The notes: generated by a model not told the origin, from the letters alone. 64,000 nt of DNA from Paludibacteraceae bacterium (GCA_017938155.1 JAGBCD010000004.1:662-64661), one strand, 5' to 3'; positions 19,010 through 63,780 are shown, numbered from the stretch's first letter. Numbers and translations are program-made.

Positions 19010-19670
19010 CATTTCAAATCTTACGAACTCACGTATAGCAAGATGTATCCATACTATTTCCCTTAATATATTACTATCCGGAGAAGTTGTAATTTTGCAC
19101 GTGATTGTCTCTTTTGCTTTACAAAACAAAGTACAACATGGGGCTTATAGGTCACCAATTAGTCCTATTTGTAATATGCAAAAGGTACTCTAATTACACC
19201 AAACACCGATAGTATAAAATGCAGAATGTGGAAAAATGTCACAAGAAGCATAAAAGCAAAGTATTATCTTTGCTGGTAAGAAAATAATAACAATGCTCAA
19301 AAGGTACGGTCACCCTACGGAATCGTCCACGATGCGAACGAGATGCGTATGACATGGGCTGCAAAATGTCTCGAAAATGTCTTGATAATGTCTTGATAAT
19401 GACAACGATTGGAATCACTGAAGAACCAGTAAGTATGCTTAAAAAAAGTTGATGACAAGCAAAACTGAATCGTTTGTTAAAGTTGATAGTTTGAGAATGT
19501 TTATCAAGAAAATATTCTGAAAAGGAGCCTTGTATTAGAAATCTTTGGAATGAGGAGTTGTACGAAAAAATTCTACTCAAAACATAGTATTTACTGGTAT
19601 TTTGAGTTGATTTTATATTGCATACAACTTTTAACGGGCAAGGATAATATTCTATTTGATAAAAGTATAA

Positions 19671-24737: not shown

Positions 24738-25302
24738 TTTTCTTATTTGACAAACTATTATCCAAGTCCTTTCTATAGAAAAATAGGATTAGAAAAACAG
24801 CCACAGTGATGCAACTATCAGCCAAATTAAAAACTGGTCTAAAAAACAAACATTCTCCAGCGCTATTCGTTATCAAAGGGAAATAAAGCATATCCACTAC
24901 TTTTCCATAGAACCAATCTTCATACCCAAAGAGTTTGCCATAAAAAACACAATCAATGATATTCCCTAAAGCACCAGCGGTAATCAACGCAATTGAAGCC
25001 AGATAGCCTTTTTTTACTATTGGTTGATTAACCAAGCTATGCATATAATATCCCAACAAGCCAACTGCCCCTATACGAAAAAGTGTTAGAAAAAGTTTAT
25101 CAAACCATTCGATACCAAAGGCCATTCCATTATTTTCCACAAAACACAAGTAAAAGAATGGGAGTATTTCATGCGACTCACCCAAATAAAAATGTGTGCG
25201 GATATACAACTTAAGGGCTTGATCCAATAGCAAGGCTACCAAAACGATTCCTGTTACCAAAATAATGCGCTGACTCTTAGGTTTCATATATTCAAAGTTC
25301 AA
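24727..25302 (-). CDS. lspA: lipoprotein signal peptidase II
   Basis: NNGMAFG and GALGNIIDC motifs; four TM helices. Confidence 0.9.
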
Positions 25303-26548
25303 ATGCTTGTTTTATTTGTTCCACCTTATCCAATTTCTCCCATGTAAACAATTCTACCTGTTTATGTATCATCTTACCATTTTCTCCAACGAATTGCTTA
25401 TTTACCCAATGTGGTTTTCTTCCCATATGTCCATACGATGCTGTCTCAGTGTAAATAGGTTGACGCAATTTCAAATCTCTTTCAATTGCTCCTGGTCTTA
25501 AATCAAACAGTCTAAGCACTTTCTTTGCGATGGCTGCATCTTTGATACATTTACCATTTTTGTCTTTCAGTTTACATGTGCCATAGGTATCCACACACAA
25601 ACTCACAGGTTGTGCCACTCCGATTGCATAACTTATCTGAACCAGTATTTGATCAGCCACTCCCGCAGCCACCAAATTTTTCGCTATCCATCGAGCCGCA
25701 TATGCTGCCGAGCGATCCACTTTAGATGGGTCTTTGCCAGAGAAAGCACCTCCACCATGAGCACCCCTTCCTCCGTAAGTATCAACGATTATTTTCCTAC
25801 CCGTCAAACCAGTATCTCCATGAGGTCCTCCGATCACGAAATTACCTGTTGGGTTTACCAATAATTTGAAATCACCATGCAACAGGTCTTCATATCGTTT
25901 ATCACGAGTTGCCACACGCGGCAGTAGAATATTAACAACATCCTCACGTATCTGCTCTTGCGTCACATTAGGATCATGTTGCGTAGATAAGACTATTGTA
26001 TCAATGCGTAATGGAATACCCGATTCACTATATTCAATCGTCACTTGACTCTTAGAATCTGGTCTCAAATAAAGCATCTGTTTGCCTTCCTTACGTATTT
26101 GCGCAAGTGTATATACCAATGTATGAGCCATATCCAATGTGAGTGGCATGTAATTTTCAGTTTCATTCGTTGCATACCCAAACATCATGCCTTGATCTCC
26201 TGCACCTTGATTGAGTTTGCCCTTGCGACTCACTCCTTGGTTGATATCTTCTGATTGTTCATGAATAGCGGTCAATATACCACAACTGGCAGCATCAAAC
26301 TTATATTCGGCTTTGTTATAACCAATATGCTCAATTTGTTCACGAACTACATGTTGAACATCCACGTACGCTTTGCTTCTTACTTCTCCCGCTACGACCA
26401 CTTGTCCTGTGGTTACTAATGTTTCGCATGCAACATGGCTATTTGGATCCACCGCCAAGAGGTTATCCAAGATTGCGTCAGATATTTGATCAGCCACTTT
26501 ATCAGGATGTCCTTCACTAACACTTTCTGATGTAAATAAATAATTCAT
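25292..26548 (-). CDS. metK: S-adenosylmethionine synthetase
   Basis: [30 protein letters not shown] and [19 protein letters not shown] motifs. Confidence 0.96.
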
Positions 26549-26586: not shown

Positions 26587-26623
26587 AAAAAAAACCACAA
26601 ACGACTGTTTTTAAGTCTTGTGG
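26587..26623 (-). terminator. leader (attenuator) terminator inside the metK 5' UTR
   Basis: Minus-strand ccacaagac-ttaaaaaca-gtcgtttgtgg followed by T8. It lies between the promoter box and the metK ATG. Confidence 0.65.
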
Positions 26624-26686
26624 CACAAGTTTTTAGCATTCTTTTATAGAGGTCGCAAGCAGTCAAATTTATCCTCTTTTTGAAAT
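26624..26686 (-). promoter_or_regulatory. candidate SAM-responsive riboswitch aptamer (SAM-II-like sequence features)
   Basis: Leader RNA reads CCGAUUUCAAAAAGAGGAUAAAUUUGACUGCUUGCGACCUCUAUAAAAGAAUGCUAAAAAC. It has an AGAGG/CCUCU stem, a GCUUG in the loop and a GCUAAAAA tail. From memory these resemble SAM-II conserved positions; no covariance-model search was run. Confidence 0.35.
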
Positions 26687-39682: not shown

Positions 39683-39706
39683 TCAACAATACTTAACATA
39701 AATAAG

Positions 39707-39734
39707 GTCCCTTCAATTGTGAAGGGACTTTTTT
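39707..39734 (+). terminator. intrinsic terminator
   Basis: gtcccttc-aattgt-gaagggac hairpin followed by T6. Confidence 0.8.
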
Positions 39735-39757
39735 GTATAATAGTTTTACCGATTCAC

Positions 39758-39837
39758 GGTTTCAAGGTTTGAGAGTTTCATTGCCTTACGGCTGTTTCAC
39801 GCACTTCGTGTTTGTTTCACCGTATCGCTTTTTCAAG
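39758..39837 (+). repeat. repeat locus R1, module A (tandem hairpin+TGTTTCA units)
   Basis: ggtttcaaggtttgagagtttcatt-GCC-ttac-GGC-tgtttca-c-GCAC-ttc-GTGT-ttgtttca...; the same unit type recurs at five other loci. Confidence 0.85.
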
Positions 39838-39922
39838 ATTTCATAACTCACAACTCCACCCCCATCACTCATAACTTTCCCTCCATCACTCATAACTCCT
39901 CCCACATCACTCATACCCCAAA
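39838..39922 (+). repeat. repeat locus R1, module B (G-free ~21-nt tandem repeats, CATCACTCATAACTyyCCCNC)
   Basis: 85 consecutive nt without a single G on the + strand; about 3.5 tandem units. Confidence 0.9.
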
Positions 39923-40319
39923 GCAAGCCAAGACTATGTCTGTTTGCTATGGGGAAAAGCGGAGGTACGAGTTGCCCCAACGATGACAAAGTCATCGGTC
40001 AATGCAATCTCGTTACCGAACGCGACAAACCAAGATTTATCTGTTTGCTATGGGGAAAAGCGGAGGTACATGTCGCCCAATGATGCAAGGCATCAGTCTT
40101 TGCGACCATGTTACCAACGCGACAAACCAAGACTTTATCTGTTTGCTATGGGGAGAAGCGGAGGTACGAGTTGCTTCCAACTTCCCCCTCTGGGTACCCA
40201 AAAGTAAACCAAGACTGCGTCTGTTTGCTTTTGGGAGAGCGGAGACATAAGTCGTCTCAACGATGACGGCGTCATCGGTCTTTACGACCTTATTGTCGAA
40301 CGCGACGTTACCGAACGCG
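39920..40319 (+). repeat. repeat locus R1, module C array (four tandem 80-115-nt units)
   Basis: The units begin with AAACCAAGAnnnnTCTGTTTGCTATGGGGArAAGCGGAGGTA. They start at about 39920, 40027, 40124 and 40206. The array ends in GTTACCGAACGCG, overlapping the dgt stop codon. Confidence 0.9.
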
Positions 40320-41663
40320 TTCAGCGAGTTGCAGTGTATATCCATCTGTCATTCCAGAGATATAGTCTGTGATGAGCATAAACTTCTTGTATGCGTCACT
40401 TGGAGTAGAGTTTCCCTCTTCGCATGCTTTGTTCCAGTAGTTTTCTGAAAATCCATCTTCCATGAATGTCTCGGGAGATAGGTGATTGTCGGTAAAGAGT
40501 TTTACCATATAGTATTGCAGTAGGTATCCAATGGCTTGCTTGCCCATTTCCTCTTTATCCACTGCAGCATGTGACTTGAAGTTGTATATATCCAATTCTT
40601 TGAAGATTGGTTTATATGCTTTCATTGGGGATGCACCTATTAGGTCTTGCATGAATGTCCCGTTTACTATTTGCTCTACATGGTTCACAAATGTTTCCAC
40701 GCAGGCATTGAGCATTTGTCCTTGCATCTTGATGCGTAATTGGTGTAAGAATTGCTCATCATTTATTTGCGACGGAATATTATCTACCAACCATTGTTGG
40801 CATCCATATTTGTCGAAAGTTTGTTTTATATCTTCTATTCCAAATGCTCCCACTTTGGCTCCATCTTCGATGTCACAAACCAGATATGCTATATCGTCGG
40901 CGGCCTCTAACACGAAAGTAAGTGGATGGCGTTGATTGGGTTGTAGGCCTAATGTTTGGTATATTGTGTTGTATTCAGCTTCGTTGCAGTCGAAGTAACC
41001 GAACTTCTCTTGCATATGATTTTCTGCTTCGTTTTTGGGTTTATTGCCTGTTAGGGAATCGTATGGGTATTTGATAAAGGCACTTAACGTAGGCATGGTT
41101 AGATTAAAATTCACCACACCCAGATTGAGTAGTATTCTTAGTCCTTGTGCGTTGCCATCAAAATGTTCAAAGTCGCTTCGTTGACGAGGAGTTAGGGATT
41201 GGTATGCTTTTTTGATGGGTTCTGGAATATCGGCGTTGGGTATGTTTTTGAAGAACGATTGTATATATTTCTCTGTAGTATGTCCAAAGGGAGGATTGCC
41301 TATATCGTGAACCAGTCCTACTACCTCCAGAATAGAAGATATCCATCTTGCTTGATGTATATCGGCGTCTAATAATCCTTTTTTATATAATAGTTCTTCT
41401 ATTCCTCTACCCATATCTTTGGCAAATCGAGACACCTCGATGGAGTGTGTGAGGCGTGTTCTCACAAAATCGTTTTCTGCCAGCGGGTACACTTGTGCTT
41501 TGTCTTGCAGTCGGCGTAAGGGAGCAGATAGCAACACTCGCGAATAGTCGCTTTCAAAGGGTGTACGAGGATCTGTTTCGGGGCGTGATGCAATTGAGCT
41601 ATGTTGCAATCGTATGGGTTGCAACATTTGTCTAAGCTTTGTGGATATATTTCTATTGGTCAT
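40308..41663 (-). CDS. dgt: dGTPase-family deoxynucleoside triphosphate triphosphohydrolase (HD domain)
   Basis: RTPFESDYSRVLLSAPLRRLQDKAQV, RLTHSIEVS and HDIGNPPFGH motifs; 451 aa. Confidence 0.85.
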   Translation of the reverse strand: MTNRNISTKLRQMLQPIRLQHSSIASRPETDPRTPFESDYSRVLLSAPLRRLQDKAQVYPLAENDFVRTRLTHSIEVSRFAKDMGRGIEELLYKKGLLDADIHQARWISSILEVVGLVHDIGNPPFGHTTEKYIQSFFKNIPNADIPEPIKKAYQSLTPRQRSDFEHFDGNAQGLRILLNLGVVNFNLTMPTLSAFIKYPYDSLTGNKPKNEAENHMQEKFGYFDCNEAEYNTIYQTLGLQPNQRHPLTFVLEAADDIAYLVCDIEDGAKVGAFGIEDIKQTFDKYGCQQWLVDNIPSQINDEQFLHQLRIKMQGQMLNACVETFVNHVEQIVNGTFMQDLIGASPMKAYKPIFKELDIYNFKSHAAVDKEEMGKQAIGYLLQYYMVKLFTDNHLSPETFMEDGFSENYWNKACEEGNSTPSDAYKKFMLITDYISGMTDGYTLQLAERVR

Positions 41664-41680
41664 ATATGTAAATTATTCAA

Positions 41681-41873
41681 TTTCAAAGTTTATCGCAACT
41701 TCGTTGCTGTTTCAGGGTTTCAAAGTTTCACCGCTTCGCTGTTTCAGAGATTCATCGCACCTACGGTGCTGTTTCAAAGTTCCAGGTTTCACCGCTTCGC
41801 TGTTTCAATGTTTCATAACTCATAACTCCTCCCCCATCGGGTACCCAAAAGTAAACGACCTGTTTATTTTGGG
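41681..41873 (+). repeat. repeat locus R2 (module A x5 units, short module B, module-C-type start hairpin)
   Basis: Hairpins GCAAC-ttc-GTTGC (41695-41707) and GCACC-tac-GGTGC (41757-41769), each followed by tgtttca. A G-free tract spans 41811-41838. The cccaaaagtaaac/gtttattttggg hairpin spans 41844-41873. Confidence 0.88.
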
Positions 41874-41878
41874 ATTTT

Positions 41879-43228
41879 TTATTTTCCGATACAGAACTTA
41901 CTAAATATATTATTCAGTACTTCTTGTGATGTTATATGTCCAGTCACTTCTCCCATTGCTTGTAGGCAGTCGTGCAAGTCCATTGATAAGAACTCGCCAC
42001 TGATTCCCTCATCCAGTCCTTGTTGTACGCGTTGAATAGCCTCATACCCACGTTGCAATGCTTCATAATGGCGAGCATTCGATAGCATCACGGTACTGGG
42101 TTGGTATTGTTCACGATAGAAGGCCACCATAGCTTCTTTCAGTGCAGACACATCGCCCTCTTTGGCCGAGAGAATGATGCCGTCACTTAGGGAAGAGGTA
42201 TCGGTGATCAAGTCTGACTTGTTGTATAGTTTTAGTACATGTTTGTTTTGCAGTACGTCTAACATCTCTTCTTGCATAAAGTCTTTCAAACTCAGTGCTG
42301 CATCTTGTTGTGCATCAATGACCCAGAGTATGATGTGTGCTTTGCTGGTGGCTTGTTTGCTTCGTTCTATGCCCAGGTTCTCTATCATATCATCGGTACT
42401 TCGTATACCAGCCGTATCTATGAGGCGAAACATCATGCCATCGATTATTAGCGTATCTTCGACCGTGTCTCTTGTCGTTCCTCCTATGGAGCTGACGATG
42501 GCACGTTCTTCGCCCAGCAAGGCATTAAGAAGCGTTGATTTGCCAGCATTCGGTTGTCCGATAATGGCTACAGGGATGCCATTTTTGATAGCGTTGCCAG
42601 TACGGAATGTATTGAGTAGAGATGATAATTGCTCTGCTATTGTATCCGCCAACTGATGTAGTTGCGAACGATCGGCAAACTCCAAGTCTTCGTGGTCTGC
42701 AAAGTCCAGTTCGAGTTCGATAAGTGAAGTGAATTTCAATAACTCTTCGCGCAATGCTTGCAATGCTTTGGATATACCGCCACGCAGTTGACTCAATGCC
42801 AAGTCTTTCTCGGCTTTGGATTGGGATGCAATCAAGTCGGCCACAGCCTCGGCACGAGTAAGGTCCAACTTACCATTTAGGAAAGCTCGTTGTGTAAACT
42901 CTCCTGCTCGTGCCATTTGACAACCAGCGTTGATTAACCATTGCAATAAGGTTTGTTGGATATACATACTACCATGGCAGGCTATTTCCACCACGTCCTC
43001 ACCAGTATAACTATGTGGATTGCGGAATACGCTTACCATCACTTCGTCTAATATCTCCTCACCTTGTTGAATGAGTCCATAACGAATACTATTGGCAGGG
43101 ACGTCGCACAAGGCTTGACGTCCTTTGAATATTCTGTCCGTTATGCTGATAGCCTCACTACCGCTCACACGGATGACGGCGATACCTCCATTACCATATG
43201 GGGTAGATATTGCACAAATCGTTTTCAT
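41879..43228 (-). CDS. mnmE: tRNA modification GTPase MnmE
   Basis: N-terminal TICAISTP, G-domain GQPNAGKST and DTAG motifs, terminal FCIGK. Confidence 0.94.
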   Translation of the reverse strand: MKTICAISTPYGNGGIAVIRVSGSEAISITDRIFKGRQALCDVPANSIRYGLIQQGEEILDEVMVSVFRNPHSYTGEDVVEIACHGSMYIQQTLLQWLINAGCQMARAGEFTQRAFLNGKLDLTRAEAVADLIASQSKAEKDLALSQLRGGISKALQALREELLKFTSLIELELDFADHEDLEFADRSQLHQLADTIAEQLSSLLNTFRTGNAIKNGIPVAIIGQPNAGKSTLLNALLGEERAIVSSIGGTTRDTVEDTLIIDGMMFRLIDTAGIRSTDDMIENLGIERSKQATSKAHIILWVIDAQQDAALSLKDFMQEEMLDVLQNKHVLKLYNKSDLITDTSSLSDGIILSAKEGDVSALKEAMVAFYREQYQPSTVMLSNARHYEALQRGYEAIQRVQQGLDEGISGEFLSMDLHDCLQAMGEVTGHITSQEVLNNIFSKFCIGK

Positions 43229-46098: not shown

Positions 46099-46307
46099 GT
46101 TTCAACGCACCTGCGGTGCTGTTTCAGGGTTTCAAAGTTTCTCCGCTTCGCTGTTTCAGCATTTCATCGCACCTGCCCAATTCCCTATCTCTCTGTAGGC
46201 ACTATGTGCCGTCCTCTAAACAGTAGGGCTCTGCCCGTCCTCTAAACTGAGCGCTTGCGCTCACCAATTACCAATTACCTATTACCTATTACCAATCCCC
46301 AATCACC
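46099..46307 (+). repeat. repeat locus R3 (module A x3, module D, G-free 7-9-nt tandem repeats CAATTACC/TATTACC)
   Basis: Hairpin GCACC-tgc-GGTGC-tgtttca at 46107-46119. Module D at 46189-46221. A G-free run spans 46261-46312 and contains the M23 stop codon. Confidence 0.88.
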
Positions 46308-49239: not shown

Positions 49240-49345
49240 GAACGCGCCGCGTTCGGTAACGAGATTGCATGAATGATATCGCTCTGCTCTATCATTGAAA
49301 GCAACTCCTACCTCCGCTCTCCCAAAATAAAGCAAACGTTTATTT
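49240..49345 (-). repeat. repeat locus R4, inverted module-C unit (left arm of a long inverted repeat)
   Basis: The reverse complement of 49248-49297 matches 49666-49715 and 49818-49867 with only a few mismatches. The palindrome gaacgcg-c-cgcgttc at 49240-49254 marks the junction. Confidence 0.85.
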
Positions 49346-49367
49346 TGGGTACCCAAGGATTGCTATT

Positions 49368-49400
49368 GTTTAGAGGACGGCACATAGTGCCTACAAAGAG
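49368..49400 (-). repeat. repeat locus R4, module D in inverted orientation
   Basis: The reverse complement ctctttgtaggcactatgtgccgtcctctaaac differs at one position from 46189-46221. Confidence 0.9.
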
Positions 49401-49433
49401 AATTGTTGATTGGTGCCCGAGGGCTATTTTAGA

Positions 49434-49565
49434 GTTTCAAAGTTTCACACCTTATGGTTGTTTCACTGCTTTGCTGTTTCAAGGTTTCATAACTCCCCAC
49501 ATCACTCATAACTCCTCCCACATCACTCATAACTTTCCCCACATCACTCATAACTCCTCCCCTAA
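49434..49565 (+). repeat. repeat locus R4, module A (3 units) plus module B (G-free 21-nt tandem repeats)
   Basis: gtttcaaagtttcac-ACC-ttat-GGT-tgtttca...; a G-free run spans 49485-49565, followed by the hairpin cctcccc-taagtta-ggggagg (49556-49576). Confidence 0.9.
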
Positions 49566-49610
49566 GTTAGGGGAGGTGCCCACAGGGCGGAGGGGTCTGT
49601 CACCCCCAGA

Positions 49611-49918
49611 GCAAACCAAGATTTATCTGTTTGCTATGGGGAGAAGCGGAGGTACGAGTTGCCCAAACGATAGAGCAGAGCGATATCGGTCAATGCAATC
49701 TCGTTACCGAACGCGACAAACCAAGACTATGTCTGTTTGCTTTTATATCGGGGTCCCCAGAGCAAACCAAGATTTTATCTGTTTGCTATGGGGAGAAGCG
49801 GAGGTACGAGTTGCCCAAACGATAGAGCAGAGCGATATCGGTCAATGCAATCTCGTTACCGAACGCGACGTCATCGGTCTTTACGACCTTATTGTCGAAC
49901 GCTCCGTTACCTACCGCG
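49611..49918 (+). repeat. repeat locus R4, module C array (two full units, one partial, terminal module)
   Basis: Two near-identical units cover roughly 49611-49716 and 49760-49867. The terminal gtcatcggtctttacgaccttattgtcgaacgc..gttacc..ccgcg is the same as the end of R1. It overlaps the stop codon of the 1646-aa gene. Confidence 0.9.
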
Positions 49919-52900
49919 AAATACTGCATAATACGTAACATCTGCTGTTACGGTCTTATCTTCTGGGCTATCAAACAAGTCAGTTGGTGGGCAGAATGGG
50001 TTTTGATAGTTCTTAATAGCAGTCCAGCCAACAAACTCTTTACCGTTAGTAGTTCCTACTTCGGTGCTTGGCATACGGAGTGCTTCACCTGAAGTATAGC
50101 GATAAGTTGCCTCTGCGTCGGTTAGTGCCACACCATCAACCATCCATGTCACACCCAATTTGCCATCACTCACGACCTCATCACTTACATATACCATATA
50201 CGATGCTGTAACTGTTTCATAAGTAGCTGTTTGTGCGATAGTAGCTGTGATTGTAGCCAAGCCTGCAGATACGCCCAACACTTGTCCTGTGATTGCATCC
50301 ACCGTCGCAATAGTTTCATCTGCACTGGTATATGCTACTACACCATCATGCTCACCTTTGTCCACCTCTACTATTCTTGATTCACCCATTTTTAAGTTCA
50401 CTTGTGCTTCAGCAAAACTTGGAGTAATCTTCTTGCGTACAACGGTAACATTGTAAGATGCGGTGGCTGCACTGTACGTTCCTGCTACTGCAGCTACAGC
50501 TACAGTGATAGTGGTATTGCCTGCTGCCAAGGCAGTCACTTGACCATTGGTTTCATTTACTGTAGCTACATTCACGTCGCTACTGGTGAAGGTCTTTGCA
50601 CCAGTAGAGTTGCATTCCAATTCGTTGGTATAGGTGTCTCCTATGGTCAACACCTTGTTGGCATCAGCAAACTCAAGGGTAGGATTTTGGGTTAAATCAA
50701 TTTCACCCGAGCAGTCGGTAGAGTAGTACATATAGGTGGTAGCAGTACCTGCGGTGTATGTAACCTCCAAATTGTTGAGGTAGAGGCGCGAATTCTTGTC
50801 GGTTCCTACACAAGTGAAGAGTACGCTGTTAGCATTGAGCCCCGACTTGGTATATTTGCCATTAGCACTAATGGATTGTGCAGCACTGGTGCTACCTGCA
50901 TCCGCCTTGTAGGTAACAGAGGTAGCCATACTCGAACCGATAGTAATGGCGGTAATCGTGGCACCTGTTTTGGCAGTGACAGTCAGTGTACCACCATTTT
51001 GATAGATACGCAGTACGCCATTGCTGATAAACGGATCATTTTGTGCACCGCCTTTAGCTGCGGCATAGGAGATATAGCTATCCATGTTTGCAGACGTGGC
51101 AGTGAAGTTGGTCATAGTGGTGGTAACTACATTGGCGCTGCCTGTTTTCTCCAAAGCATATACGGCATAGTAGGTGGCATCGGCTGTCACTTCCTCGCCC
51201 GCAGAGATAAACTCTGGTGCTTGGGTGTCGTTGTGATAGTCGTTGGTAGCAATCCATCCAACAAACTTTTTGGTATTGGCACAAGCCGTTGGCGTAGTTG
51301 CTGGCAACGCCAATTTATCGCCTTCAGTGTAGGTGACTTCGTCACCAAACTGTTCGCCATTAGCCTTCCATGTGACGGTGTATTTCGCCAAATCTGTAAT
51401 AGTCAGTTGGTATTTCGCGCTGGCAGCATTATTGTACGTGCCTTCTGCCACAGATGCGGTGATGTCGACTGTACCTGCCTTCTTAGGGGTGACTACACCA
51501 CTGCTATTGACGGTAGCGGTCGTTTCATCCGAAGATGAGTAAGTGATAGTACCATAGGTGGTAGTGGCAGGGTTAGAGAATGGCTGGTTGACCTTAGTAG
51601 TTTGGTTGCCATCGTATTTGAATGTAATATCAGGGGTTTGCTTTACGATCTCACCTGTTTGGCTCACGTAGAGGTACAGTCCCTTTTGCGCCGAAGTATA
51701 GGTGCGGAAGCGTGGACTGCTACTGTTGTAGTAGAGTTGCGTACCGCCTACGGTCATTATCGTTTTCCCATCATCGCCCACGTTGATAGTCCATGTGCTA
51801 TTAGCACCATCCCATCCCAATTTGTCAGTAGTACCTGATAGTTTCTTACTTTCGCTGTTGGTGAGTGTCCATGCACCAGTGCTACCGCCGAGGGTGAAGA
51901 TAGAAATATCGGTATTGGTCTTTTGGGTGGTAATCTCTGTGCCGTTGACGGTGAAGCCCGTGGTAACACTCTCCAAGTAGGTGTTGCTCACCAGTTGTCC
52001 CGCTACGGCAGGAGTTTCGGCATATACCAGAATACACTTTGCATCTGCTTGCAGCATGGAGGTATTGGTCAATCGAGTAAAGGTAATTGCATTCTCAGGA
52101 TCAATCTCTGGCATGATATAAATGCCGAGGTCGCCTTCCACATTGCTGATAGTAAGGGTCGTACCGCTATAGCTAAACTCGCGTGCCTCGCCATTTTGCT
52201 CTACTTCTATCATTGTATTGTCGAGCACATATCCCAACGCTGGTGTCACAGTCAGGGTGAGTGTGCCACCTTTGGCTACAGAGCCTACTTCGCTACTAAT
52301 GGTGGCGTTTTCGTATAGCACCTCGTATGTCCATCGCGCTTTGGTGGCGGTGGCAGTGATGGTGATAGTTTGGATTGCATCGCCAGTGATGGCAGAGCCA
52401 TTGATAGTTAGATACTGATTGTTGTTGGATAGGGTATAGTGAGTATCTTTGGTCAAAGTGGTAGAGCCTAATTTCACGCTAACGGATGTAATATCGTAGC
52501 TGGCGTCAGCAGGAATGATATTGGCGGTAAGCGCTGCGCCATTCGCCACACAGTCGCTGCTTGGGGTGATGGTACAATCGGAACCATCGGTGAGGACACT
52601 ATGACATTCGGCATTGTCAATATAGGTGAGTGTGATGACTCCCCCGCTCTCGGTGATGTCCAATAACGGTTTACCGCTCACGCCTTCCCAACGGGTTTTC
52701 TTCTTAGTTCCAGGAAATGGGTCTGCAGCAGTACCTATACCTGTGGTAGCACCAGAGGCTGAGACTATAGCATAGCGTATAGTGCCGTCGGTATCGTTTG
52801 GACCATTATCCTCCCATTCCGATTGGCTGTACATGATTTTCCATATCACCAAACCATGTCCAGGCAGATAGGCATCCCATCCACTCTTTTGGCGGTTTTC

Positions 52901-54847
52901 TATATAATACACCGTATTGGTAGCGGTAGCGGCGAGTAATGAGTTGCTCGAGGCTATCTGATAGCCTTGGAAACCGTCTGTACCTGCTGCTTTGAGTGTC
53001 AATGTTTGTGCGGTATTGCTTGGGTTGGTAGGTGTTTTCCAACCGAGGAAATACTTGTCGTAGACGGTATAGTTAGGTGGAGTCTTACCACTATTGTTGT
53101 ACGAACCATTGTCCATGATATGCCAACTACCTGGAGTCATTTCGTCCTCGTAGTTTTGTCCGTAATCAATATCGTAGAGGTCTGGCAGACCGATTACGTG
53201 TCCAAACTCATGAGCGATAGTACCAATGCCGGCACGTTTACCAGACTTGCCATTCAACTCGCCTGAACAAGCATAATTATTGATATACTTACCATCGAAG
53301 CGACGTTTATTCTTAGCATAGCTACAATTACCCCAATATGCAGCAGCATCCAAACTCCAGTTATGTGGCCAAATGGTATTGTCTGCACCACCATCAGCTT
53401 CGCCTTTGCCTGCATAAAGGATATATACGAAGTCCACTTCACCATCACCATCATTGTCGTACTTTGTAAAGTCCACGCCATAACTGGTATTGGCTATTTT
53501 ACATGCTTCTACCACCATATCACCTGGCAGGACATCGTTGTCATTCTGATCATTGGCACCATAATATTCTACATTTTGGGTCAGCGTGACAGGGCCTACT
53601 ACATCAAAGTCTGGAGTGTATTGTCCGTCGGATTGGTCTGAGAAATATTTACGCACCGACCCCAGAGCACCATCATAGGTATAATCATCAGCATTCATCA
53701 AGTCATTCATTGCCGATTGGTTGTTGGCAGCACTAAACTTACTATCCGCAAAGTTCACCAAAATAACCAACCCTCGCGGTGCGAGGTTGGGTTTTCCGAC
53801 AGCACGATGAGGGCGTGACTGCAACATAGGTGATGCTTGTCGGCGTGCCTTGATGGTGGCAGGAGTAGGTTGGCTCTCCACCACGCGCCAGTAGCCCAGC
53901 GAGTCGCATTTGACCACGTTGCCTGCTTGGTCTTGCCAGTAGTGGTGGAACTCGTCACCCACGAGACGCACCTGTATCGTTGTGCCATCGGGTTGTGTTT
54001 TGGTTTGCCATCCGCGATAGGCAGGCACAGCGAAAGTTGCTGTTGCTACCATCGTAAGAATAATTACTGATGCTACGCGTTTTACACGTTTGCACAACGG
54101 ATAGGCCAAGCATAGCAACAACATGAATATCCAAGGAGTATCTCCTACAGGCACACCTGGTTCTACAGGATTGATTGGTAGGTTCTGGTCTCCGAATGGA
54201 TTATCTGAATTACGACGATTGTTTATTTGTCGGATACCACCGATGCTATATCCTTCATCATAGGTAGTGGTGGCTATAGAAGCTACATTTACGCTTCCAA
54301 TGACACTGGTATTGATAGTTGATGCCATAGTGAAAGGCTTTACTTTGTAATTTGTATTTTGTGCTATCATTTGTTGAGTAGATGCGGGTTGAGTATTATC
54401 TTCATTCTCTTTATAGGTTGTAGGCATATGAGCCATGAGAACAGGCATTACAGTCATCGCAACATATGACTGTTCTTGAACAGGTGCAGAAGATGCATTG
54501 CTCATTGATGCCCCCCCTGATACATTGGCAGATGCCCCAAACGAATGCATCATGGGAGTATGGAACGTTTGTTCTGAGAATACACGTCCACTACTTGTTC
54601 CCATAGCAATACGAGCGGGTTGAGTGAAATGGGTATCAAAGGCATATGAGCGATGCTGATTAACTGACTTAAATTGATAACCTGCAGGAGCACCACCATA
54701 GTAAAAATTACGATAGGAGCTACCTAAAGAAGACTTGGTAGAAGGAATGGTATTGTTTACTGGTTTAGAGCTATCACTGAATAAATACAAGACAGCTACC
54801 AAAAGGAGTGATAAGACTGAGAAAAGTATATATTGTTTTGTTTTCAT
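49907..54847 (-). CDS. giant secreted M6/InhA-like zinc metalloprotease with Ig-like and Listeria-Bacteroides repeat domains (1646 aa)
   Basis: HEFGHVIGLPDLYD zinc site (HEFGH codons at 53198-53212); M6-type LAPRGLVILVNFADS segment; Big_2-like segments (TITYSSSDETTATVNSSGVVTPKKAGTVDITA); repeats of the KKFVGW....YYAVYA type. Confidence 0.8.
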   Translation of the reverse strand: MKTKQYILFSVLSLLLVAVLYLFSDSSKPVNNTIPSTKSSLGSSYRNFYYGGAPAGYQFKSVNQHRSYAFDTHFTQPARIAMGTSSGRVFSEQTFHTPMMHSFGASANVSGGASMSNASSAPVQEQSYVAMTVMPVLMAHMPTTYKENEDNTQPASTQQMIAQNTNYKVKPFTMASTINTSVIGSVNVASIATTTYDEGYSIGGIRQINNRRNSDNPFGDQNLPINPVEPGVPVGDTPWIFMLLLCLAYPLCKRVKRVASVIILTMVATATFAVPAYRGWQTKTQPDGTTIQVRLVGDEFHHYWQDQAGNVVKCDSLGYWRVVESQPTPATIKARRQASPMLQSRPHRAVGKPNLAPRGLVILVNFADSKFSAANNQSAMNDLMNADDYTYDGALGSVRKYFSDQSDGQYTPDFDVVGPVTLTQNVEYYGANDQNDNDVLPGDMVVEACKIANTSYGVDFTKYDNDGDGEVDFVYILYAGKGEADGGADNTIWPHNWSLDAAAYWGNCSYAKNKRRFDGKYINNYACSGELNGKSGKRAGIGTIAHEFGHVIGLPDLYDIDYGQNYEDEMTPGSWHIMDNGSYNNSGKTPPNYTVYDKYFLGWKTPTNPSNTAQTLTLKAAGTDGFQGYQIASSNSLLAATATNTVYYIENRQKSGWDAYLPGHGLVIWKIMYSQSEWEDNGPNDTDGTIRYAIVSASGATTGIGTAADPFPGTKKKTRWEGVSGKPLLDITESGGVITLTYIDNAECHSVLTDGSDCTITPSSDCVANGAALTANIIPADASYDITSVSVKLGSTTLTKDTHYTLSNNNQYLTINGSAITGDAIQTITITATATKARWTYEVLYENATISSEVGSVAKGGTLTLTVTPALGYVLDNTMIEVEQNGEAREFSYSGTTLTISNVEGDLGIYIMPEIDPENAITFTRLTNTSMLQADAKCILVYAETPAVAGQLVSNTYLESVTTGFTVNGTEITTQKTNTDISIFTLGGSTGAWTLTNSESKKLSGTTDKLGWDGANSTWTINVGDDGKTIMTVGGTQLYYNSSSPRFRTYTSAQKGLYLYVSQTGEIVKQTPDITFKYDGNQTTKVNQPFSNPATTTYGTITYSSSDETTATVNSSGVVTPKKAGTVDITASVAEGTYNNAASAKYQLTITDLAKYTVTWKANGEQFGDEVTYTEGDKLALPATTPTACANTKKFVGWIATNDYHNDTQAPEFISAGEEVTADATYYAVYALEKTGSANVVTTTMTNFTATSANMDSYISYAAAKGGAQNDPFISNGVLRIYQNGGTLTVTAKTGATITAITIGSSMATSVTYKADAGSTSAAQSISANGKYTKSGLNANSVLFTCVGTDKNSRLYLNNLEVTYTAGTATTYMYYSTDCSGEIDLTQNPTLEFADANKVLTIGDTYTNELECNSTGAKTFTSSDVNVATVNETNGQVTALAAGNTTITVAVAAVAGTYSAATASYNVTVVRKKITPSFAEAQVNLKMGESRIVEVDKGEHDGVVAYTSADETIATVDAITGQVLGVSAGLATITATIAQTATYETVTASYMVYVSDEVVSDGKLGVTWMVDGVALTDAEATYRYTSGEALRMPSTEVGTTNGKEFVGWTAIKNYQNPFCPPTDLFDSPEDKTVTADVTYYAVFRGR

Positions 54848-61510: not shown

Positions 61511-61788
61511 AAGTTTCATGCGCTGTGCGCTTGTTTCAAAGTTTCAAGGTTTCAGGCACCAGAGGTGCGGTTTCATGCCTTGCAGCTGGTTCAAGCGGCA
61601 GAGCCGCAGTTTCAAAGTTTCAAGGTTTCAAAGTTTCAATATAAGTGTAAGCATCTTGTGATGCTTGTTTCATGCGCTGTGCGCTTGTTTCAAAGTTTCA
61701 TCGCTTCGCTGTTTCACGAGACGGTGTTATGTTATGTACGCCTACGGCGCAGTGTTGCTCTGAAATGTTGACATTATTTGGATATTAG
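61511..61788 (+). repeat. repeat locus R5 (module A x6-7 units plus a 72-nt tail)
   Basis: Five hairpins, each followed by (t)gtttca: GCGC-tgt-GCGC (61520-61530), GCACC-aga-GGTGC (61556-61568), GCGGC-aga-GCCGC (61595-61607), AAGCATC-ttgt-GATGCTT (61649-61666) and a second GCGC-tgt-GCGC (61673-61683). Confidence 0.9.
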
Positions 61789-61830
61789 AGTTTTTAAGCG
61801 GGCTTTTTTGTTTGTTTCAAAAAAAAAATG

Positions 61831-61838
61831 TACCTTTG
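61831..61838 (+). promoter_or_regulatory. -7 box TACCTTTG for hipBA
   Basis: Matches TAnnTTTG, 72 nt upstream of the hipB ATG. Confidence 0.55.
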
Positions 61839-61909
61839 CAGCGAATTAAACTATCATATAATATAGCTTACCTATTGTTTACTTAATTATATGATACATT
61901 ATTATAATT

Positions 61910-62227
61910 ATGAGCAAGTCCACACAAAGCACTCTTCTGCCACGAAGAGCCCAAAAAAACTTAGCAATTGCAGGCGAACAAATTCGTTTGGCTCGTTTGC
62001 GCCGTGATATCAGTATTGCACAGATGGCTGACTGGGCTGGTTGTTCGGAGCTGACAGTCATGCGTGTCGAAAAAGGGACTCCATCTGTAGCGATAGGAAC
62101 CTATCTGCGTATTCTGTTTGCTTTGAACTTAGACGAAGATATCTTGTTAATCGCACAGCAAGACACCATCGGTCGTGAACTACAAGACCTTTCACTCAAG
62201 CAACGCCAACGTGCATCATCAAAATAA
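61910..62227 (+). CDS. hipB: XRE-family HTH antitoxin (HipB-like)
   Basis: HTH segment IRLARLRRDISIAQMADWAGCSELTVMRVEKG; sits 6 nt upstream of the hipA-like gene. Confidence 0.8.
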   Translation: MSKSTQSTLLPRRAQKNLAIAGEQIRLARLRRDISIAQMADWAGCSELTVMRVEKGTPSVAIGTYLRILFALNLDEDILLIAQQDTIGRELQDLSLKQRQRASSK

Positions 62228-62233
62228 TATACT

Positions 62234-63469
62234 ATGCAACAGATTGAAGTATATCTTAATCACAACGCCCAATTAGAAAAGGTCGGCACGCTTACTTACG
62301 AACAGTTGCGAGGCAATGCTACGTATCACTTTTCGTATAATGCCAAGTGGCTTAGTAATCATCTGCACCTATCCCTTAGTGGTGATTTACAATCGCATAC
62401 GGGCTGGCAACATACCACGAAGCGCTTATTCGGTTGCTTCACTGATGCGTTACCTGATCGCTGGGGACGACGATTGATTGATAAGCGTGAGCAGATTTTA
62501 GCTCAGGCAGATGGTCGTATTCCTCGTACATTCAACGATTTTGATTATCTGCTTCAGCTGGATGATTTCTCTCGTATGGGAGCGTTTAGATTTCGCATTG
62601 AGGGAGAGAAGGAATTCATGGGCATCTTTGATGAAGCAATGTCTGTTCCTCCACTCACTTCTCTACGCGAATTTACCAACATTGCACAAGCTTACGAGGC
62701 GAAGCCAGATAATATACAATGGGTTACGAATCTGCTACGCCAGGGCTCTTCCTTAGGTGGTGCACGTCCAAAAGCGAATATGATGGATGAAAATGGCGAC
62801 TTGTATATTGCCAAAGTGCCTTCTATCCACGATGATTATGACGTGGCGCTTTGGGAGCATTTTGCTCACCTGTTAGCTAAAAAAGCTGGAATACAAGTTG
62901 CAGACACCCGCTTGATGGTTATCCCAGGTTTTTCTCATCATGCATTGCTATCCAAACGCTTTGACCGAATAGGTCAAGATCGTGTGCACACGGTATCGGC
63001 GATGACGCTGACTAACCTTCAAGACGGTGCGGATGCATCTTCTGGAAATGGTTATTTGGATATTGTGGACACCATCGTCAGCGGCATTGGTATCGCTGAT
63101 GCAGACATGAATCTCAGAGAATTATATCGCCGCATCGCGTTCTCTATTTGTATCGGCAATCACGATGACCATTTCCGCAACCATGCTTTTGTTTTAACAC
63201 AAAATGGCTGGACACTTTCGCCTGCTTATGATATTAACCCTACCAACATGCTCACTCAGAGTTTGCTGATTTCGGATTCTTCTTGTAATTCTTCACTTGT
63301 AGAGTTGCTACACGCTTCAGGTCAGTACTTATTGCCAGCGGAAGTAGCAGCGCAGATTATCAACGAGGTGAAAGACGCAGTCCGCGATTGGCGCAAAGTG
63401 GCAACACTTTGCCACATCTCTCCAAGCGAACAGCAACGCTTTGCAAAACGTTTGGAATACTGCTTTTAA
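62234..63469 (+). CDS. hipA: type II toxin HipA-family serine/threonine kinase
   Basis: GGARPK motif (SSLGGARPKAN), catalytic loop NHDDHFRNHAF, and a HipA N-terminal coupling domain (VGTLTYEQ...YHFSYNAKW). Confidence 0.9.
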   Translation: MQQIEVYLNHNAQLEKVGTLTYEQLRGNATYHFSYNAKWLSNHLHLSLSGDLQSHTGWQHTTKRLFGCFTDALPDRWGRRLIDKREQILAQADGRIPRTFNDFDYLLQLDDFSRMGAFRFRIEGEKEFMGIFDEAMSVPPLTSLREFTNIAQAYEAKPDNIQWVTNLLRQGSSLGGARPKANMMDENGDLYIAKVPSIHDDYDVALWEHFAHLLAKKAGIQVADTRLMVIPGFSHHALLSKRFDRIGQDRVHTVSAMTLTNLQDGADASSGNGYLDIVDTIVSGIGIADADMNLRELYRRIAFSICIGNHDDHFRNHAFVLTQNGWTLSPAYDINPTNMLTQSLLISDSSCNSSLVELLHASGQYLLPAEVAAQIINEVKDAVRDWRKVATLCHISPSEQQRFAKRLEYCF

Positions 63470-63537: not shown

Positions 63538-63615
63538 AATCCAAATATGTCAATACGTCAAAGAGCACTTTTACGACAGAGTCGCTATAGTATATCTCGG
63601 CTTACGCCTTGATGT

Positions 63616-63780
63616 CTCAAAGTTTCAATATAAGTGTAGCATCTTGTGATGCTTGTTTCATGCGCTGTGCGCTTGTTTCAAAGTTTCACCGCACCTACGG
63701 TGCTGTTTCACGCGACGGTATTATGTTATGTACGCCTGCGGCGCAGTGTTGTTTTGAAATGTTGACATAATTTGGATTAG
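63616..63780 (+). repeat. repeat locus R6 (module A x4 units plus tail); direct repeat of 61628-61788
   Basis: Collinear with the right part of R5 over about 160 nt. The differences are one swapped hairpin unit (GCACC-tac-GGTGC instead of CGCTTCGCTG) and a handful of substitutions. Confidence 0.9.

Follow-up and report, generated by a model that had tools for sequence, protein, structure and literature searches.

Two intergenic regions in a 64,000 nt stretch of DNA from Paludibacteraceae bacterium (GCA_017938155.1, JAGBCD010000004.1:662-64661; the whole stretch is referred to here as the window) are occupied by arrays of a repeated unit, here named module C. Array 1 (39916-40319), which consists of head-to-tail units of ~100-110 nt, is preceded by a 162-aa gene that has a strong terminator (39704-39731) and followed by the 3' end of a convergent gene for a dGTPase-like HD-domain protein (40308-41663, minus strand), beyond which the next gene is mnmE. 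Array 2 (49604-49918) lies between the 3' end of the gene for a 1646-aa M6-type protease (49907-54847, minus strand) and the promoter side of a metallo-beta-lactamase-fold gene, and is antisense to both. The other window open reading frames (ORFs) scanned belong to housekeeping genes, among them tsf, rpsB, rplM, metK, rho and lgt. The two arrays are local pile-ups of a ~110-base two-hairpin repeat that is scattered through the intergenic DNA of an uncultured lineage of rumen Bacteroidales. Module C is probably a lineage-specific, non-coding interspersed repeat of the class that includes repetitive extragenic palindromes (REPs), bacterial interspersed mosaic elements (BIMEs), BOX elements and MITEs (miniature inverted-repeat transposable elements), rather than an array of RNA genes.

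Tandem Repeats Finder reported a 98-nt period over 39924-40171 (copy number 2.5, identity 84%), and a 30-nt core, TCTGTTTGCTATGGGGARAAGCGGAGGTAC, has five matches in the window, all on the plus strand, where none is expected. A preliminary description of this DNA had noted tandem units of 80-115 nt; the tandem repeat is real, but the full unit is ~110 nt, with a range of 106-120 nt. The second array that it reported is made of the same unit type, with the span corrected as above, and the two arrays do share a terminal piece, GTCATCGGTCTTTACGACCTTATTGTCGAACGC, which closes them at 40270-40302 and 49870-49902. Array 1 comprises two full units, a unit without its first 9 nt, a unit cut after the 5' arm of hairpin 2 and a terminal 13-mer, while array 2 comprises two full units, a piece containing only hairpin 1, a 36-nt 3'-arm piece and a terminal 13-mer (Table 1). 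The single inverted copy near array 2, overlooked in the preliminary description, sits upstream of the promoter of the metallo-beta-lactamase-fold gene. It has an orthologue in a related species (contigs L054, 7904-8007, and L021, 676-779) and is missing from three alleles of the locus (L087, L089 and L094).

Table 1. Positions of module C units and companion modules in the window
Feature	Position	Strand	Details
Module A, left part of composite	39742-39841	+	GTTTCA(A/G)(A/G)GTTTCA-type short repeats and tiny triloop hairpins
Module B, 21-nt minisatellite CATCACTCATAACTCCnCCCn	39842-39915	+	3.5 copies (2 in short allele)
U1, full unit	39916-40026	+	alpha-type hairpin 2, tip GATGAC-AAA-GTCATC; covariance model 126.4 bits; fold -49.6 kcal/mol, z = -7.3
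U2, without first 9 nt of hairpin-1 5' arm	40027-40123	+	beta-type hairpin 2 (GGTACATGTCGC/GCGACCATGTTACC), tip GATGC-AAG-GCATC
U3, truncated	40124-40196	+	hairpin 1, linker and hairpin-2 5' arm, then ...CTCTGGGTA
U4, full unit	40197-40306	+	gamma-type hairpin 2 (GACATAAGTCG/CGACCTTATTGTC); hairpin 1 CCCAAAAGTAAAC/GTTTGCTTTTGGG; covariance model 117.7 bits
Terminal 13-mer GTTACCGAACGCG	40307-40319	+	unit 3' end
Inverted, diverged unit copy	49246-49349	-	hairpin-1 tip deleted; covariance model 59.4 bits
Module F	49365-49400	+	GGCAC-ATAG-TGCC hairpin and GTTTAGAGGA; inverted and doubled at 46195-46247
Modules A and B, left of array 2	49425-49561	+	21-nt minisatellite, 3.7 copies
Palindrome CCCCTAAGTTAGGGG and module D (GGTGCCCACAGGGCGGAGGGGTCTGTCA)	49559-49603	+	also in short array-1 allele
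V1, full unit	49604-49717	+	alpha stem, tip CGATA-GAGCAGAGCGA-TATCG; covariance model 111.7 bits
V2, hairpin 1 alone (AAACCAAGACTATGTCTGTTTGCTTTTATATCGGGGT)	49718-49754	+	like bricks precede units at many loci
V3, full unit	49755-49869	+	99% identity to V1; covariance model 115.4 bits
36-nt 3'-arm-only piece (gamma type) and diverged terminal 13-mer GTTACCTACCGCG	49870-49918	+

Long ORFs (87-221 aa) cross the arrays at 49273-49938 and 39944-40207 (plus strand) and 40037-40345 (minus strand), and at 4457-4906 in contig L003. They are spurious, and in several public assemblies array-spanning ORFs of 149, 146 and 221 aa with no Pfam match have been annotated as proteins. The minus-strand reading of two units is peptide-like. 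However, indels in the linker and the tip are of 1-7 nt and are not multiples of three, and stop codons fall inside units, so a coding remnant was rejected and the units are considered non-coding.

Fold, covariation and strand

A full unit begins with hairpin 1, CCCCAGAGCAAAC-CA-AGAC-nnn-GTCT-GTTTGCTATGGGG, followed by a linker ending in AGCGGAG and a 65-nt hairpin 2 that runs from GCGGAGGTACGAGTTGC to GCAAyCTCGTTACCGAACGC. Its 3' end is GAACGCG plus two variable bases. The hairpins quoted in the preliminary description (39982-39996, 40082-40094, 40262-40276 and 49668-49688) are all exact on the sequence, as is the exchange of AGAC/GTCT for AGAT/ATCT in hairpin 1. Their extents need revision. 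The stem of hairpin 1 is longer than described, with 13 bp (CCCCAGAGCAAAC/GTTTGCTATGGGG) below the AGAC/GTCT tip, and what was taken for hairpin 2 pairs as stated but is merely the tip of the 65-nt bulged hairpin.

The lower stem of hairpin 1 covaries, and its upper part, AAC-CAAGA...TCTGTTT, is invariant. Hairpin 2 has an invariant GCG/CGC foot with a GA/GAA internal loop, a middle part made up of three covarying 4-bp stems, with a bulged pyrimidine and a bulged T that both lie on the 3' arm, and a variable tip. We recognised three types of hairpin 2, alpha (5' arm GGTACGAGTTGC, 3' arm GCAAyCTCGTTACC), beta (GGTACATGTCGC and GCGACCATGTTACC) and gamma (GACATAAGTCGC and GCGACCTTATTGTC), all of which retain the pairing and both bulges (4 bp / bulge / 4 bp / bulged T / 4 bp). 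The bulged T is invariant across units, as are the hairpin-2 foot, the AGCGGAG linker and upper hairpin 1, and the paired neighbours of the bulged T vary.

When 32 distinct units were compared, standard pairs were present in 96.0% of cells, against 89.6% in shuffles (0/500 shuffles as high), and sliding the partner columns by 1-3 positions reduced paired cells to 32-39%. Both sides have changed in 15 of the 39 pairs, eight of them within the 12-pair main stem of hairpin 2, and the compensatory changes noted earlier are thus far more numerous than had been seen. Tips and stems have been shuffled between units, and a few chimeras have mismatched arms (L032_164 and L054_179). The minimum-free-energy fold of U1 agrees with the covariation structure, and DNA folding parameters yield the same unit fold. 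Fold energy, pairing and covariation all bear out the claim that this is a structured element.

The sense strand (plus in the window) is more stable than its complement in 31/32 units, with means of -45.3 and -39.9 kcal/mol, respectively. Stem cells include 33 G.T and nine A.C combinations, four of the latter being avoidable via re-pairing with the bulged T. As the sense strand folds better and G.T outnumbers A.C, it is in one strand, whether RNA or single-stranded DNA, that the structure appears to matter, rather than in a duplex palindrome bound by a protein. Rfam 15 returned no match at the gathering score, and in E-value mode over 39916-40319 the best match had E > 4. A known RNA family was therefore rejected, and the element belongs to no family catalogued there.

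Evidence for transcription was also sought. No Bacteroidetes-type promoter (TTTG...TAnnTTTG) was found in or upstream of the arrays by a scan that does find the promoter of the downstream HipA operon; for this phylum a sigma-70 promoter scan carries no information. Metatranscriptome contigs, which are unstranded, do contain units, and there the arrays reach ~5-20x the depth of flanking genes, which is not above the 12-29x excess seen for DNA in contigs from other samples. In RNA runs X40 and X41, which cover array 2, the window's own genes are uncovered and the flanks are at about zero. The metatranscriptome contigs gave no sign of an abundant discrete RNA, the samples barely containing the window's species.

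Dispersal and turnover

A pattern scan of metagenome contigs returned 57 loci, of which ~35 are real; four samples from a single study account for nearly all of these. Using BLAST and a covariance model built here, we found 34 full-length units and many fragments on ~35 contigs, most of them as single copies. The covariance-model search suggested in the preliminary description, run on 450 kb of related contigs, gave 59 matches. All copies are intergenic; the regions that hold them are unrelated, and both orientations are represented. Sheep and cattle gut DNA runs show the arrays at a contig depth 12-29x that of flanking genes, with one variant reaching 41x, which implies that there are dozens of unit copies per genome. 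Two unit-bearing contigs are syntenic with the window at 85-88% identity and thus come from a sister species.

No real copy was found in 185,579 species-representative genomes (one per species), where two pattern scans gave zero matches and 11 chance-level singletons. BLAST found no unit match in plasmid and phage collections, and of the 15 loci that two scans returned from viral contigs none was confirmed by the covariance model. The nearest homologues of the dGTPase-like protein are 92% identical and the next only 64%, indicating that this lineage is poorly sampled.

Units are mostly found just past gene 3' ends, and in ~16/23 contexts the downstream gene is convergent, frequently at a distance of 2-50 nt. 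Units have no fixed orientation with respect to local genes (~13 co-oriented, 6 opposed). At array 1, GTTACCGAACGCG, when read on the minus strand, supplies the dGTPase-like gene with its final codons and stop (E R V R *). In a shorter allele of array 1 the same 13-mer is the 3' end of the sole, complete unit, which runs straight into the dGTPase reading frame. Hence these last codons are element sequence; dGTPase homologues at <=64% identity have different ends. At array 2, the diverged 13-mer GTTACCTACCGCG includes the stop codon of the protease gene.

Conspecific assemblies, with flanks that are 96.5-99.4% identical, were recovered by exact-protein look-ups. At array 1, the four-unit form in the window has a one-unit counterpart (flanks 98.8-99.4% identical) that consists of module A, two module B repeats, the CCCCTAAGTTAGGGG palindrome, module D and one unit. 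Alleles of array 2 include the window form, a form with another composition and without the inverted copy (L089, GCA_045589935.1) and forms with no unit and a 111-nt spacer (L087, L090, L091 and L094). L087 and L089 share a protease allele (97.7% identity) and so differ cleanly by the presence of a 735-nt composite. In L089 this composite lies between ...GTTTAGAG(G/A)A and CGC(G/A)AAATAC...; each junction carries GAACG, and the empty allele has GGACG just once. The window allele of this locus is bounded by inverted unit 3' ends. Two very different alleles of the protease gene itself are found in the species, of 1646 and ~1161 aa (the latter in L087 and L089), and they align only over the last 238 nt (83-84% identity).

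Sister-species synteny stops at the array after the 162-aa gene, and the spacers differ: two C units follow mnmE in the sister species, in the place of modules A and B in the window. The truncated copies are nested pieces of 110, 100, 36-48 and 15 nt with a common 3' end, GAACGCGnn. They start at the start of hairpin 1, 9 nt into hairpin 1, in the 3' half of the hairpin-2 tip (36-48 nt) and at GTTACC (15 nt). Identical truncated bricks recur at different loci, and the U3-type brick, with an identical junction, is found in L028, L032 and L046. A 10-nt palindrome, GAACGCGTTC, is present at the dGTPase junction. Over the time-scale on which strains diverge, copies of module C have been acquired and lost, swapped and duplicated in tandem.

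Companion modules and neighbouring sequence

Units and their fragments are joined in brick-like fashion with the hairpin modules A, B, D and F, mostly past gene 3' ends. The order is A, B (2 to 3.7 copies), D where present, then C at both window loci and in alleles L095 and L089. Module A, which has 19 matches in the window, all on the plus strand (1.1 expected), consists of GTTTCAAAGTTTCA-type 8-nt repeats and hairpins with 3-4-nt loops (GCACC-TAC-GGTGC, GCGC-TGT-GCGC and GCATC-TTGT-GATGC). Besides array 1, it is found left of array 2 (49425-49490), in four other intergenic regions (41681-41816, 46100-46180, 61520-61720 and 63610-63710) and in L054 (4520-4860). In place of the ~1.5 A repeats of the window, the sister species has five of 61 nt, and it also uses a variant, AATTCAAAATTC.

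Module D precedes units at many loci. In three cattle metatranscriptome runs, word depth over module D and its palindrome (CTAAGTTAGGGGAGGTGCCCACAGGGCGGAGGGGTCTGTCACCC, 49555-49600) is 120-500, against 0-15 for the adjacent C units. DNA runs show the reverse, with module D at ~7x flanks and C units at 11-18x. Abundant transcripts from other loci or other species may include module D.

Module F is a 26-nt repeat, GTAGGCACTATGTGCC-GTCCTCTAAAC, and at 46236-46262 a small hairpin, GAGCGC-TT-GCGCTC, then follows. In array-less alleles, the module F tail is the 3' end of the protease gene (codons R-V-L-stop). A 7-nt repeat, ACCAATT, adjoins module F (6.4 copies, 46263-46307), and the same string occurs in the loose ends of DNA contigs that join units elsewhere. 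An 11-nt repeat, AAAATGTCTTG, is present in 3.5 copies at 19363-19401, and the sister species has three copies of GGAAATGTCTC in the spacer orthologous to array 1 (L058, 6060-6100).

Directly past the mnmE stop, at 41838-41880, is a hairpin resembling hairpin 1, CCCAAAAGTAAAC-GACCT-GTTTATTTTGGG, followed by ATTTTTTATTTT (plus strand). This resembles an intrinsic terminator, though one that would serve the opposite strand to mnmE. Elsewhere in the window, the S-adenosylmethionine synthetase gene (25292-26548, minus strand) has a SAM-II (long-loop) riboswitch (26623-26682, minus strand, 57.4 bits) immediately upstream. A small helix-turn-helix gene and, after it, a gene for a HipA-family kinase (411 aa) probably form a HipBA-type toxin-antitoxin pair at 61900-63469 (plus strand). 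This operon has module A repeats on both sides and a textbook Bacteroidetes promoter upstream (61807-61838).

Relationship to known repeats and possible mobility

Module C shares several properties with REPs and the BIMEs and REPINs (REP doublets forming hairpins) built from them. It is a many-copy, intergenic, imperfect bulged palindrome of one lineage, found in mosaic clusters with other motifs that are concentrated at gene 3' ends; compensatory changes preserve the hairpin, and it is inherited vertically in a narrow lineage with polymorphism between strains. However, REPs are 20-40 nt and module C is ~110 nt with two hairpins, whose feet (CCCC.../...GGGG for hairpin 1 and AGCGGAG.../...GAACGC for hairpin 2) contain no GT[AG]G. 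Unlike BIMEs and REPINs, its arrays are head-to-tail, the sole inverted copy lying 250 nt from the array. No tnpA_REP (HUH Y1) gene, which encodes the REP-associated tyrosine transposase (RAYT) of such systems, was found in the window, nor any motif match in the 751 kb scanned.

By description, BOX elements of Streptococcus pneumoniae (boxA, repeated boxB and boxC) have a comparable fixed module order with a variable number of a short internal module, and they too fold strongly, are intergenic and encode no protein. They belong to an unrelated host phylum, so that similarity in sequence would not be expected, and here it is the large C module that is multiplied and also occurs alone. The BrickBuilt MITE of Porphyromonas gingivalis, a species belonging to this bacterial order, consists of a leader, a 23-nt minisatellite and a tail, with small terminal inverted repeats; it is always intergenic and species-restricted, with 19 copies in ATCC 33277 whose ends are full, partial or missing (PMC4596501). 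A like layout is seen in the window, where the 21-nt minisatellite B lies between A and C. However, BrickBuilt is defined by its minisatellite and terminal inverted repeats, and module C by a covarying two-hairpin unit that also occurs without A or B. With REP/BIME, BOX and BrickBuilt-type MITEs known, the arrangement is less unusual for bacterial intergenic DNA than had been assumed.

Palindrome-associated transposable elements (PATEs) derived from IS200/IS605 share hairpins with an extrahelical T, a type that HUH enzymes specific for single strands recognise, and junctions at a short motif, here GAACG/CGCG, and the geometry of hairpin 2 recalls the ends of IS608, which have an extrahelical T. 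In contrast to PATEs, there is no TnpA or TnpB nearby, no left-end/right-end pair can be defined, and tandem head-to-tail arrays would be atypical. Type III toxin-antitoxin RNA arrays (ToxI-like) differ in that here the downstream genes are the convergent dGTPase-like gene and the M6 protease gene, and copies are dispersed. The best reading is that the repeat is a new lineage-specific variant of the mosaic hairpin-repeat class.

The hairpins could be kept as host 3'-end structures, acting as terminators or insulators between convergent genes or as stabilisers of mRNA 3' ends, roles of the kind that have been proposed for REPs. We consider this unlikely. Units do lie directly past stops, with a convergent gene often close by, both strands are stable (-45 and -40 kcal/mol), and a hairpin-1-like hairpin with a T-run follows mnmE. 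However, such a role leaves the invariant bulged T, foot and linker, the three covarying stem types and the better-folding strand unexplained, as well as the promoter-side and antisense copies, and some strains do without units at array 2. We give somewhat less credence to the idea that the units represent structured non-coding RNAs, in the form of small RNAs or of transcripts processed from the arrays, that are made from the plus strand and act in trans or on flanking genes. The strong covariation, the favoured strand and the G.U-compatible changes would suit an RNA, metatranscriptome contigs contain units, and ~2/3 of copies are co-oriented with the upstream gene. Against this, there is no Bacteroidetes promoter consensus in or before the arrays, a strong terminator precedes array 1, array 2 is antisense to both neighbours, the RNA excess is not above the DNA copy excess, there are many truncated copies or chimeras with broken pairing (L032_164 and L054_179), conspecific alleles exist without any unit, and Rfam has no match. 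A special tandem array of ~100-nt RNA genes, the RNA side of the candidate structured RNA or DNA element array of the preliminary description, is accordingly unsupported, as copies are dispersed, strain-variable, without a promoter and not fixed in orientation.

Two further explanations involve known routes of mobility and are much less probable. Hairpin 2 resembles an integron attC site, which likewise folds as a single-strand hairpin: the foot is conserved, a spacer is unpaired, the stems covary, two conserved extrahelical bases stand five positions apart on the same arm, the tip varies and one strand folds better. The units might be an integrase-less cluster of such sites that fold for an integron-type tyrosine recombinase. 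This is largely refuted. The foot is GCG...CGC, and there is no R''/R' core (RYYYAAC...GTTRRRY), the nearest strings, CGGTAAC and GTTACCG, violating the consensus. Units abut with no ORF or gene cassette between them, the window has no integron integrase, and copies are singly dispersed over the chromosome rather than gathered on one platform. The least probable explanation is that copies are made via an RNA intermediate. Retro-mobility of this sort could give a constant 3' end with variable 5' truncation, as in the nested pieces that all end in GAACGCGnn, and the sense strand is favoured in folding. However, no reverse transcriptase was seen among the window ORFs and there is no promoter. The truncation points fall at hairpin tips and module joints and the bricks recur, which recombination or slippage fits better than random 5' truncation.

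If module C belongs to the REP/BIME/BOX/MITE class of interspersed repeats, it may be mobilised in the form of single-stranded DNA. The hairpins would be kept because one strand is recognised folded and single-stranded, most likely by a trans-acting hairpin-binding enzyme that acts on single-stranded DNA, the leading candidate being a REP-associated HUH tyrosine transposase. RAYT subclasses 2.4 and 2.6 are typical of Bacteroidetes and are linked to atypical hairpins, with subclass 2.6 found mostly in this phylum and its hairpins being without GTAG (Quentin et al., PMC6006769). By analogy with that subclass, a RAYT-type partner for the unit is plausible. Arrays would arise by the joining of new material at GAACG/CGCG, which is carried at the 3' end of every unit, and slippage and recombination between units or at hairpins would add to their growth. 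Transcription of units would be passive read-through, and the hairpins may secondarily serve as 3'-end or terminator structures for flanking genes. More specifically, and only tentatively, hairpin 2, with its invariant foot and extrahelical T, may be the site for a strand-specific single-strand DNA enzyme, either a Bacteroidetes-type RAYT or an undescribed HUH enzyme or recombinase, that joins copies at this motif.

Several observations weigh against mobility of this kind. No transposase, integrase or reverse transcriptase was found in the window (Pfam, 29 ORFs) or beside any copy, and no RAYT-like HUH and YIH[QN]NP motif was found in the 751 kb scanned, which is a small genome sample. As set out above, the units are without the GT[AG]G foot of canonical REPs and do not alternate as in BIMEs and REPINs. 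Orientation follows no simple replication-strand rule, since single 45-kb contigs carry copies both ways round; GC skew in the window is weak and ambiguous. As the empty allele of array 2 retains the module F tail and the sister species has the inverted copy too, the empty state may equally be a deletion product, and the GAACG direct repeat is an ambiguous sign of a target-site duplication. The presence of units in RNA sequencing contigs means that they may also have a role at the RNA level.

To our knowledge, interspersed hairpin repeats have been well studied in Proteobacteria and pneumococci and hardly at all in Bacteroidales, one of the dominant gut orders. The repeats described here are abundant enough to break metagenome assemblies, an orthologue of the neighbouring dGTPase-like gene being confined to a 1.4-kb contig. 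Structural variation between strains is one effect of the family; in addition, it marks a point at which synteny between sister species breaks, gives rise to spurious ORF calls and supplies at least one housekeeping gene with its final codons and stop. The arrays could also be of use as markers for typing strains of rumen Bacteroidales. With their fixed bulges, the covarying stems provide a substrate definition for finding the enzyme that handles the repeat, possibly among uncharacterised Bacteroidetes RAYT subclasses. If hairpin 2 is indeed the site for such an enzyme, the element would target itself, as every unit ends in the GAACG/CGCG motif, and this would lead to head-to-tail arrays, nested 3'-coterminal fragments and rewritten gene 3' ends. 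It would then be the first defined repeat-enzyme system of its kind in Bacteroidales, with an attC-like substrate geometry.

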